From assembly GCF_003334405.1 (NCBI RefSeq), contig NZ_QOWM01000077.1: a DNA stretch of 214 bases; one strand, given 5' to 3'. Below, one piece after another: positions 1 through 214 of the stretch. The stretch is from Escherichia coli (lineage in GTDB: Bacteria > Pseudomonadota > Gammaproteobacteria > Enterobacterales > Enterobacteriaceae). The translations under genes were made by a program, and so were the position numbers. The notes beneath the pieces are model-generated. The model made no database searches, was not told the DNA's origin, and worked only from the letters and a program-made list of their open reading frames with translations. Position 1 is the stretch's first letter. Every line of letters begins with the position of its first letter.

Positions 1-46
1 TCATCCTCATGAGCTGCAGATGCAAAAAAGCCTGCTCGTTGAGCAG
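1..46. repeat. Direct repeat copy 1 (exact 46/46 match to 169-214; period 168 bp); abuts the window start, so true repeat length is at least 46 bp
   Basis: Base-by-base comparison of 1-46 with 169-214 gives zero mismatches. Seen directly in sequence. Confidence 0.95.
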
Positions 47-214
47 GCTTTTCGAATTTGGTCGGTGATAGAGGATTACTCGCCACTTCGTGGCTCGCCC
101 TGCGGGCCGTTGCTGGCGCAACGTTCTCTCGCTTCGCTCGAGTCGAACCTCCCTGCCCCCGGAGGTTCTCATCCTCATGAGCTGCAGATGCAAAAAAGCC
201 TGCTCGTTGAGCAG
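2..214 (+). CDS. Stop-free reading frame spanning the whole window (register of ATG at 20-22 and 188-190); an open-frame observation, not a supported gene call
   Basis: All 71 codons in this register (2-4 through 212-214) are sense codons. Plus-strand stops occur only in the other two frames (TGA at 10, 40, 178, 208; TGA at 66 and TAG at 69). One unit from ATG 20 translates to MQKSLLVEQAFRIWSVIEDYSPLRGSPCGPLLAQRSLASLESNLPAPGGSHPHELQ (56 aa). Against coding: third-position GC is 33/56 (59%), the same as bulk GC; the frame runs through the terminator hairpin; no resemblance to any protein family I recognise. Confidence 0.12.
24..52. terminator. Intrinsic (rho-independent) terminator-like hairpin, bidirectional: A6, 8-bp GC-rich stem, 3-nt loop, T4
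   Basis: aaaaaa(24-29) gcctgctc(30-37) gtt(38-40) gagcaggc(41-48) tttt(49-52). The stem arms are perfect reverse complements, and with the flanking A/T the inverted repeat is 12 bp perfect (26-37 with 41-52). Minus-strand reading gives hairpin then U6 (complement of 24-29), the stronger orientation. Plus-strand reading gives hairpin then UUUUCGAAUUU, a weaker interrupted U-tract. Confidence 0.6.
82..123. other. Cluster of three adjacent short perfect stem-loops (potential structured RNA segment; strand undetermined)
   Basis: gccac-ttc-gtggc (82-94; 5-bp stem, 3-nt loop); gccc-tgc-gggc (97-107; 4-bp stem, 3-nt loop); cgttgc-tggc-gcaacg (108-123; 6-bp stem, 4-nt loop). All arms are perfect reverse complements. 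Function is inferred only. Confidence 0.4.
146..167. promoter_or_regulatory. 7-bp stem-loop pairing CCTCC (anti-SD-like) with GGAGG (Shine-Dalgarno-like), upstream of ATG at 177
   Basis: aacctcc(146-152) ctgccccc(153-160) ggaggtt(161-167), perfect 7-bp stem with 8-nt loop. GGAGG at 161-165 lies 11 nt upstream of ATG 177-179 (the copy of ATG 9-11). The structure is seen directly; a regulatory role is speculative. Confidence 0.3.
169..214. repeat. Direct repeat copy 2 (exact match to 1-46); abuts the window end
   Basis: Identical to 1-46 at offset 168. The window therefore holds 1.27 copies of a 168-bp unit. Confidence 0.95.
192..214. terminator. Second copy of the terminator-like hairpin, truncated by the window end (A6, left arm, loop, 6 nt of right arm)
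   Basis: aaaaaa(192-197) gcctgctc(198-205) gtt(206-208) gagcag(209-214), identical to 24-46. Lies inside the terminal repeat. Confidence 0.5.

Follow-up and report, generated by a model that had tools for sequence, protein, structure and literature searches.

A second copy of the proK terminator hairpin in the RtT repeat unit downstream of tRNA-Pro(CGG) in Escherichia coli

Highly expressed stable-RNA operons are followed by tandem fail-safe terminators, as exemplified by rrnB T1–T2, and tRNA precursors are a source of 3′ external transcribed spacer RNAs such as 3′ETS-leuZ. Repeats of the RtT family also lie downstream of tRNA genes. At the founding RtT locus of K-12 (tyrT/tyrV), four RtT copies are arranged at a 178-bp period, and the RtT copies of this tyrT type end in a copy of the tyrT 3′ end.

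The terminator of proK, a widely reused part in suppressor-tRNA plasmids, is the closest described relative of the hairpin reported here. The proK gene, which encodes tRNA-Pro(CGG), is monocistronic, and its primary transcript of about 113 nt has a Rho-independent terminator at its end (Mohanty, Petree, Kushner 2016, PMC5291269). RNase E strips this terminator by one cut directly 3′ of CCA (GACCA|AAUUCG; PMC5291269, Table 1), and in rne-1 strains 59–86% of the cloned proK RNAs carry an intact terminator (PMC5291269). With tRNA and terminator probes, the species of about 113 nt was the largest one detected even without RNase E (PMC5291269), and the trailer/terminator fragment of 30–35 nt was just very weak (Mohanty et al., PMC5291269).

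Here we analyzed a 214-nt stretch of E. coli DNA (the window), in which the hairpin at positions 24–52 corresponds to an exact distal duplicate of the proK terminator. We refer to the terminator next to the tRNA gene as T1 and to its distal duplicate as T2.

The hairpin and its repeat unit at the proK locus

The window exactly and colinearly matches the K-12 chromosome (L001 1501–1714; NC_000913.3 3,708,390–3,708,603), and a BLAST search found it in 5426 of the 5426 complete E. coli genomes, where the matched features carry the labels 'RtT sRNA' and 'tRNA-Pro'. Transcription of proK runs along the minus strand of the window, and the gene order is eptB–proK–RtT–REP–dppA, on one strand throughout. 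In the direction of transcription, eptB is followed by the proK promoter (TTGACG-17-TAAGAT, upstream of the tRNA gene), tRNA-Pro(CGG), the spacer AAATTCG, a hairpin with T6 (T1) and RtT. After RtT, which ends with a 19-nt copy of the tRNA 3′ end, come AAATTCG, a hairpin with T6 (T2), a truncated third unit, the REP and dppA. The features of the window are as follows.

1–46, no strand assigned: exact re-read of 169–214, which sets the 168-nt period (repeat finder)
24–52, minus strand: T2, exact distal duplicate of the proK intrinsic terminator (inverted repeat, energy, shuffles, identity, conservation)
29 to 24, minus strand: U6 of T2, whose minus-strand reading is AAAAGCCUGCUC-AAC-GAGCAGGCUUUU, then UU (U6 in total), then GCAU (sequence)
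53–58, minus strand: trailer AAUUCG, 6 nt, between CCA and the hairpin (sequence)
59–77, minus strand: 19-nt copy of the tRNA-Pro(CGG) 3′ end, AATCCTCTATCACCGACCA, forming the 3′ end of RtT (sequence)
59–192, minus strand: RtT element (Rfam RF00391), full length, 'RtT sRNA' of PGAP (101.3 bits)
145–168, minus strand: RtT internal hairpin, GAACCTCC / GGAGGTTC (repeat finder, Rfam match)
192–214, minus strand: partial T1, the proK terminator proper, directly downstream of the tRNA gene (locus match, PMC5291269)

Positions 1–46 are exactly repeated at 169–214, yielding a 46-nt direct repeat with a spacing of 168. The window spans just 1.27 units, and thus TRF called no tandem array in it. The second hairpin copy is cut at the end of the window; the full T1 hairpin would occupy 192–220, and the window stops 6 nt early. 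In the source genome, both hairpin copies are complete and reside in a 108-nt exact direct repeat at an offset of 168, in agreement with the earlier proposal, made from the sequence alone, that the hairpin recurs once per 168-nt unit. Each 168-bp unit combines the 19 terminal nucleotides at the 3′ end of the tRNA with the 6-nt trailer, the terminator, and RtT sequence that comprises its 5′ part and core.

The match to RtT on the minus strand (192–59) scores 101.3 bits (E = 6e-22) over the full model (1–130/130), against an Rfam gathering score of 45 for RF00391. The element lies downstream of a tRNA gene, and its terminal 19 nt are identical to the 3′ end of proK (19/19). In addition, the 3′ arm of its internal hairpin equals the 5′ half of the proK T-arm (GGAGGTTCGA). 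The trailer AAUUCG matches the RNase E cleavage context of proK, GACCA|AAUUCG; judging from this sequence, RNase E would be expected to cut on the T2 side as well. ARAGORN found no tRNA gene inside the window, which holds just the 19-nt 3′ fragment. In the K-12 tyrT/tyrV array, neither a hairpin nor a T-run was found in the spacers between the tyrT-type copies. The embedded terminator is thus inherited from proK and not from RtT.

At T2, window positions 26–37 and 41–52 form a perfect 12-bp inverted repeat with a 3-nt loop, as detected by a repeat finder (arms AAAAGCCTGCTC / GAGCAGGCTTTT), with A6 at 24–29 and T4 at 49–52. The plus strand of window 21–56 reads tgc-AAAAAA-GCCTGCTC-gtt-GAGCAGGC-TTTT-cgaa. 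Among 5000 dinucleotide-preserving shuffles of the 168-nt unit, a perfect 12-bp stem appeared in none and an 11-bp stem in one. Folding of both strands, which the sequence-only reading had suggested as a check, gave –18.4 kcal/mol on the plus strand and –18.2 kcal/mol on the minus strand, with z-scores of –3.7 and –4.3, respectively. An intrinsic terminator is expected to have a GC-rich stem-loop of about 5–14 bp with a short loop. T2 possesses a stem of 12–13 bp with six G:C pairs and a 3-nt loop, directly followed by U6 when read in the proK sense (minus strand). The proK promoter and the tRNA gene have the same orientation and lie 200–320 nt upstream.

The sequence-only reading had described a perfect 12-bp inverted repeat with A6/T4 flanks in intrinsic-terminator architecture, with a minus-strand tail of U6 and a plus-strand tail of U4-CGAA-UUU. 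All of these points were borne out, and the Rho-independent proK terminator that has been validated experimentally is its identical proximal twin (PMC5291269). It had further considered the hairpin stronger on the minus strand, which holds for the U-tract (tail score 4.38 for the minus T6 versus 3.32 for the plus T4-CGAATTT) and fails for the stem (GC-core energy –12.0 on the minus versus –13.4 on the plus strand). A simple terminator scan returned a single match, the truncated copy at 214–200, and none in L002. The scan missed the full hairpin because extension of the stem through A:U pairs consumes the T tail; the miss is an artefact of the rule and not counter-evidence to a terminator.

Several further properties of the locus were recorded. 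The window matches each E. coli genome a median of 7 and a maximum of 16 times. The 11 matches in K-12 exceed the proK and tyrT copies examined, indicating more RtT-like copies at other loci. The RtT core (window 78–143) is present once at the proK locus of K-12, and tyrT has core copies as well. The REP next to the array (L001 1386–1465, plus strand) matches Rfam naRNA4 (RF02564) at 69 bits, above threshold; this naRNA4-like REP is located about 35 nt left of window position 1 and oriented toward the hairpin. On both strands, long ORFs of 166–230 aa stay open across the array (L002 1152–1852; whole window), a mechanical effect of 168 = 56 × 3, or 56 codons. Such run-through is not evidence for a gene, and no sign of coding was seen in the array. 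An annotated tpr gene sits within the tyrT array. The window also holds the palindrome CTCATGAG at 6–13, a PstI site (CTGCAG) at 16–21 and an XhoI site (CTCGAG) at 139–144. An engineered construct, as these two restriction sites and the plasmid-borne 'proK terminator' might imply, was ruled out by the exact chromosomal match in all E. coli genomes.

Conservation and unit number

A search of the species genomes with a 14-nt motif from the RtT core returned 120 stretches, most of which were chance matches in unrelated phyla, and about eight enterobacterial loci were usable. These scanned genomes provided proK-type loci in Citrobacter werkmanii, Enterobacter sp. Bisph1, Escherichia albertii and Superficieibacter electus. 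When metagenome contigs were then searched with a longer pattern, built so as to leave out the E. coli variant, 24 loci were obtained. A hairpin plus T-run follows CCA in 29/29 tRNA genes, 5/5 internal RtT copies and 26/30 array-terminal RtT copies; after RtT it is thus retained in 31/35 instances. The failing copies (L037, L134, L144 and L139) are all array-terminal, and the difference between terminal RtT (26/30) and T1 (29/29) is a trend only (Fisher p = 0.11). When a terminator was defined by a stem of 9 bp or more, no fewer than five G:C pairs and at least five T in the 8 nt past the GC core, 38 of the 42 unique post-CCA 42-mers, from about 30 loci, qualified.

The stem sequence varies, with at least eight versions among the loci (for example GCCTGCTC, CCCTGCTC, CCCAACC, GCCTGACC, GCCAGCC, GCCCGCTC, CCCCGCC and GCCCTGCTC). 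In six loci (L022, L128, L130, L131, L135 and L139) the stems of T1 and T2 differ from each other, and five of these six T2 hairpins pass the full definition, the sixth (L139) having one mismatch. Compared to E. coli T2, the C. werkmanii T2 has a G:C pair replaced by C:G. Pairing is retained even as the adjacent spacer diverges freely. MAFFT misregistered hairpins with 3-nt and 4-nt loops, and we therefore used a loop-anchored alignment. Across 23 distinct stems, 97.0% of the cells were paired, as against 31–66% with the 3′ partner slid, figures that are favoured by the alignment in that each sequence is anchored on its own predicted loop. Double-sided (compensatory) changes occur at 6 of the 12 pairs (22 cells), and the covariation score was reached in 0/500 shuffles, in a comparison including metagenomic sequences whose relatedness to one another is unknown. 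Compensatory substitution, as expected of an intrinsic terminator, is thus seen in a loop-anchored alignment that favours structure. In an Enterobacter MAG (L082 6371–6620), tRNA-Pro(TGG) replaces CGG at the syntenic site; downstream of this tRNA come a terminator, an RtT truncated to its 5′ half and then a different hairpin with a T-run, GGGTTAACC-GTAA-GGTTGGCCC.

The number of units varies among strains. K-12 carries one full RtT and two terminators, and strain 219 carries two RtTs and three terminators. Searching 5423 E. coli genomes with the two-RtT allele gave matches 185 bp long (no RtT unit, one terminator), 353 bp long (one full unit, two terminators) and 521 bp long (two full units, three terminators). 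The 185-bp allele (no RtT, one terminator) is present in, for example, Nissle 1917, UPEC 536 and O55:H7, and was confirmed by direct reading of the sequence. At least one RtT at proK was found in 2682 of the 5423 genomes, and two RtTs in about 4 of 60 evenly sampled rows. Given that about half of the E. coli genomes are without T2, T2 is dispensable. Furthermore, the MG1655-derived assembly NZ_CP107553.1 (L150, 'MG1655_insertion') equals K-12 minus exactly one 168-nt unit, with 0/300 mismatches; the loss is either a recombinational deletion between the 108-nt repeats or an assembly collapse. With its exact 108-nt repeat, the locus is liable to lose or gain units, or to be collapsed in assembly.

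Transcript ends and the role of the distal hairpin

In the published Northerns of proK, which used tRNA and terminator probes, there is no species larger than about 113 nt (PMC5291269). The terminator probe also hybridises to T2, and read-through into RtT and T2 is thus below Northern detection. The Term-seq tables (Adams 2021, PMC7815308) list one strong 3′ end at the locus, 3,708,616(–), which corresponds to the mature CCA end. No 3′ end was called at T1 or T2 (PMC7815308), and short reads cannot be assigned to either copy because both lie in the 108-nt exact repeat; the TERMITe supplements hold no entry at the locus. Given this ambiguity, the silence of Term-seq is weak evidence on T2, and the absence of ends at the hairpins fits rapid removal of the terminator. 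At the terminator U-tract, 3′ ends are established for the identical T1 (PMC5291269), and for T2 the Term-seq data hold no call, with ambiguous reads. High-throughput 3′-end maps are in this respect blind here, the reads of T1 and T2 being indistinguishable.

No promoter was found within the 168-nt unit, as the sequence-only reading had anticipated; the proK promoter sits upstream of the tRNA gene. Its corollary, that recurring terminators imply read-through or processed multimeric transcripts, found no support in the maximum of about 113 nt (PMC5291269) and in Term-seq, where the CCA end is the only one. So multimeric proK transcripts, if any, are rare.

In E. coli, T1 and T2 are identical. 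The two copies share the trailer, the hairpin and the U-tract on the same strand, in a common context after ...CACCGACCA|AAUUCG. T1 (window 192–214 and beyond) abuts the tRNA, whereas T2 follows the pseudo-tRNA end of RtT 168 nt on. T2 is a second copy of the Rho-independent terminator of proK, tandem-duplicated within the 168-bp unit, and we consider it probable that it serves as a competent backup stop. T2 exists because the 168-bp unit was tandemly duplicated downstream of proK, and units are probably gained and lost by recombination between the 108-nt direct repeats. T1 ends the transcript of about 113 nt, after which RNase E trims right after CCA (PMC5291269). In the proposed model, T2 would meet just the few polymerases that escape T1 and, lying between a very strong tRNA promoter and dppA in the same orientation, may provide a backup stop. 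Any RtT RNA arising from read-through has a CCA|AAUUCG site of its own, at which it would be processed as the tRNA is. Identity with T1, the strand and conservation of the structure across genera suggest that T2 is competent as an intrinsic terminator; together with the lack of a transcript longer than about 113 nt and of a Term-seq end at T2, they make it most likely a competent, rarely used backup. The same two observations speak against the model, in that neither shows T2 being reached or used. Moreover, selection is not needed to account for the identity of T1 and T2 in most genomes, for which recent duplication or gene conversion would suffice.

This last point leads to the reading of the hairpin as a neutral passenger, kept intact by the youth of the unit or by gene conversion with T1, with no role of its own in termination. 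It accounts for the identity of T1 and T2 in most genomes, for an array that is polymorphic and dispensable, and for decay that is confined to terminal copies. However, it is weakened by the genomes in which T1 and T2 differ and both are intact: in the six loci with differing stems, five T2 hairpins retain a perfect stem and a T-run of 5 or more (the exception, L139, having one mismatch), C. werkmanii T2 shows the G:C to C:G swap, and pairing persists beside a freely diverging spacer. We therefore regard the passenger reading as unlikely. By analogy with the release of RtT from the tyrT transcript, T2 might instead be the working 3′-end signal of a separate RtT RNA; regulated read-through of T1 would yield a tRNA–RtT co-transcript with its end at T2, to be processed to an RtT RNA with a CCA end, a possible but rather improbable reading that overlaps the backup-stop model and makes this role of T2 the primary one. 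RtT is of full length with a strong family match, it ends in the tRNA-like CCA|AAUUCG context, the 31/35 post-RtT hairpins with T-runs include genomes in which T1 and T2 are different, and both hairpins form independently in the minimum-energy fold of a hypothetical read-through RNA. Against a separate RtT RNA, the largest RNA of the proK locus is about 113 nt even in rne-1 strains, Term-seq has just the mature tRNA end, half of the E. coli genomes lack RtT at proK, and tyrT-type RtT copies need no hairpin.

A bidirectional terminator would in addition halt antisense transcription on the plus strand, arising for instance from the REP/naRNA4-like element or as antisense to dppA, and so shield proK and eptB. 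The symmetric arrangement of A-tract, hairpin and T-tract, a plus-strand hairpin as stable as that of the minus strand, and the naRNA4-family REP match on the plus strand, about 60 nt upstream and facing the hairpin, are in line with it. However, the plus-strand tail consists of U4 followed by CGAA, with a score of 3.32. Among 39 folded variants, the median T-run downstream of the GC core on the sense strand is 6, with at least 5 in 38 of them. The antisense U-run, which corresponds to the A-run upstream of the core, has a median length of 4 (range 0–6; 0–3 in nine variants). In 36 of the 39 the sense run exceeds the antisense one, and in none does it fall short of it. Neither a promoter-like site on the plus strand near the hairpin nor a convergent gene at the locus was found, eptB, proK and dppA being co-directional. 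The convergent units with U-tracts on both strands that are expected of a bidirectional terminator are missing here. The bias toward the sense run and the lack of a convergent gene and of a plus-strand promoter argue against a selected bidirectional role, to which we assign very little probability, and the earlier description of the hairpin as functional in both directions found no support. An upstream A-tract is common in strong intrinsic terminators.

The form of the window, one unit with a 46-nt overlap, would by itself also suit a small circular or satellite-like 168-nt replicon with its own terminator. The colinear chromosomal match in 5426/5426 E. coli genomes and the unique flanks (the tRNA gene at one end and REP with dppA at the opposite one) leave this reading practically no chance, and refute a circular, viroid-like or satellite element. 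Accordingly, of the earlier alternatives of a tandem or a circular unit, the tandem one stands, with K-12 carrying about 1.6 units in a short array, and the circular one falls. Matches on phage and plasmid records do not place RtT on mobile elements, since they are chromosomal DNA under wrong labels. NZ_CP018654.1 (L151) is a 34-kb Salmonella 'plasmid' record with the chromosomal purU–tyrT region, and the proK–RtT region is found in OR850888.1 (L152), a Salmonella phage record of 7.4 kb that is labelled 'UNVERIFIED_ORG' and has 3.7x coverage; both look like mislabelled chromosomal DNA.

Comparison with known systems

The hairpin is an ordinary textbook intrinsic terminator that is already known and annotated. 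It has little import for new biology, given that its twin has been dissected experimentally and that RefSeq labels the element RtT. The small descriptive additions are the presence of a terminator in each proK-type unit versus none in the tyrT type, and the polymorphism of 0, 1 or 2 units. The curated K-12 record NC_000913.3 (3708000–3708900, L148) annotates proK and eptB and omits the proK copy of RtT, whereas PGAP/RefSeq records of the K-12 sequence do label the locus 'RtT sRNA'.

Apart from the terminator, RtT itself (window 59–168, minus strand; L003 700–1500) resembles the 3′ half (T-arm and acceptor strand) of the adjacent tRNA, its T-loop holding a core of about 65 nt. tRNA-Pro reads GGAGGTTCGA|ATCCTCTATCACCGACCA, and RtT reads GGAGGTTCGA|CTCGAGCG...GGCGAGTA|ATCCTCTATCACCGACCA; the T-loop junction is identical in tyrT-type copies. 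The 5′ segment of RtT is complementary to the tRNA-specific 3′ end, with GAGGAT/ATCCTC at proK and GGGGAAGGAT/ATCCTTCCCC at tyrT. In the predicted minimum-energy fold of the hypothetical read-through RNA (L001 1515–1808, minus strand), the 5′ acceptor strand of the tRNA pairs with the acceptor copy at the 3′ end of RtT and not with its own. A speculative idea, to which we give a low probability, is that proK-type RtT units are self-contained pseudo-tRNA cassettes that rebuild a tRNA-like 3′ half, an RNase E site and a terminator round the core of about 65 nt. The rebuilt half may comprise the T-arm, the acceptor 3′ strand and CCA, with the core exactly at the T-loop position. If this were true and read-through were inducible, CCA-ended tRNA mimics would be made, which could be, for example, decoys for tRNA-3′-end enzymes or toxins, or provide a link to the stringent response. 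A link of RtT with the stringent response has been reported. It is also conceivable that a tRNA-targeted insertion mechanism left its mark in the T-loop junction.

The tyrT 178-bp repeats (RF00391; rttR in K-12) and the proK-type repeats belong to the same family, lie downstream of a tRNA gene in tandem, and in both types each unit ends with a copy of the 3′ end of the neighbouring tRNA. They differ in that the proK-type units (168 bp) hold a terminator each and the tyrT-type units (178 bp) hold none, a contrast on which no statement was found in the searchable literature. Moreover, processing of the tyrT transcript has been reported to yield the rtT RNA, whereas an RtT RNA from the proK copy is putative. 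To 3′ETS-leuZ, the proK trailer is similar in being a short RNA of trailer plus terminator hairpin that is released by RNase E from a tRNA precursor; we know of no sponge or regulatory activity of the proK trailer. Finally, two or three serial intrinsic terminators behind a very strong promoter are reminiscent of rrnB T1–T2. Unlike those, the proK terminators are exact duplicates within a repeat unit, separated by a structured pseudo-tRNA, and their number varies from strain to strain.
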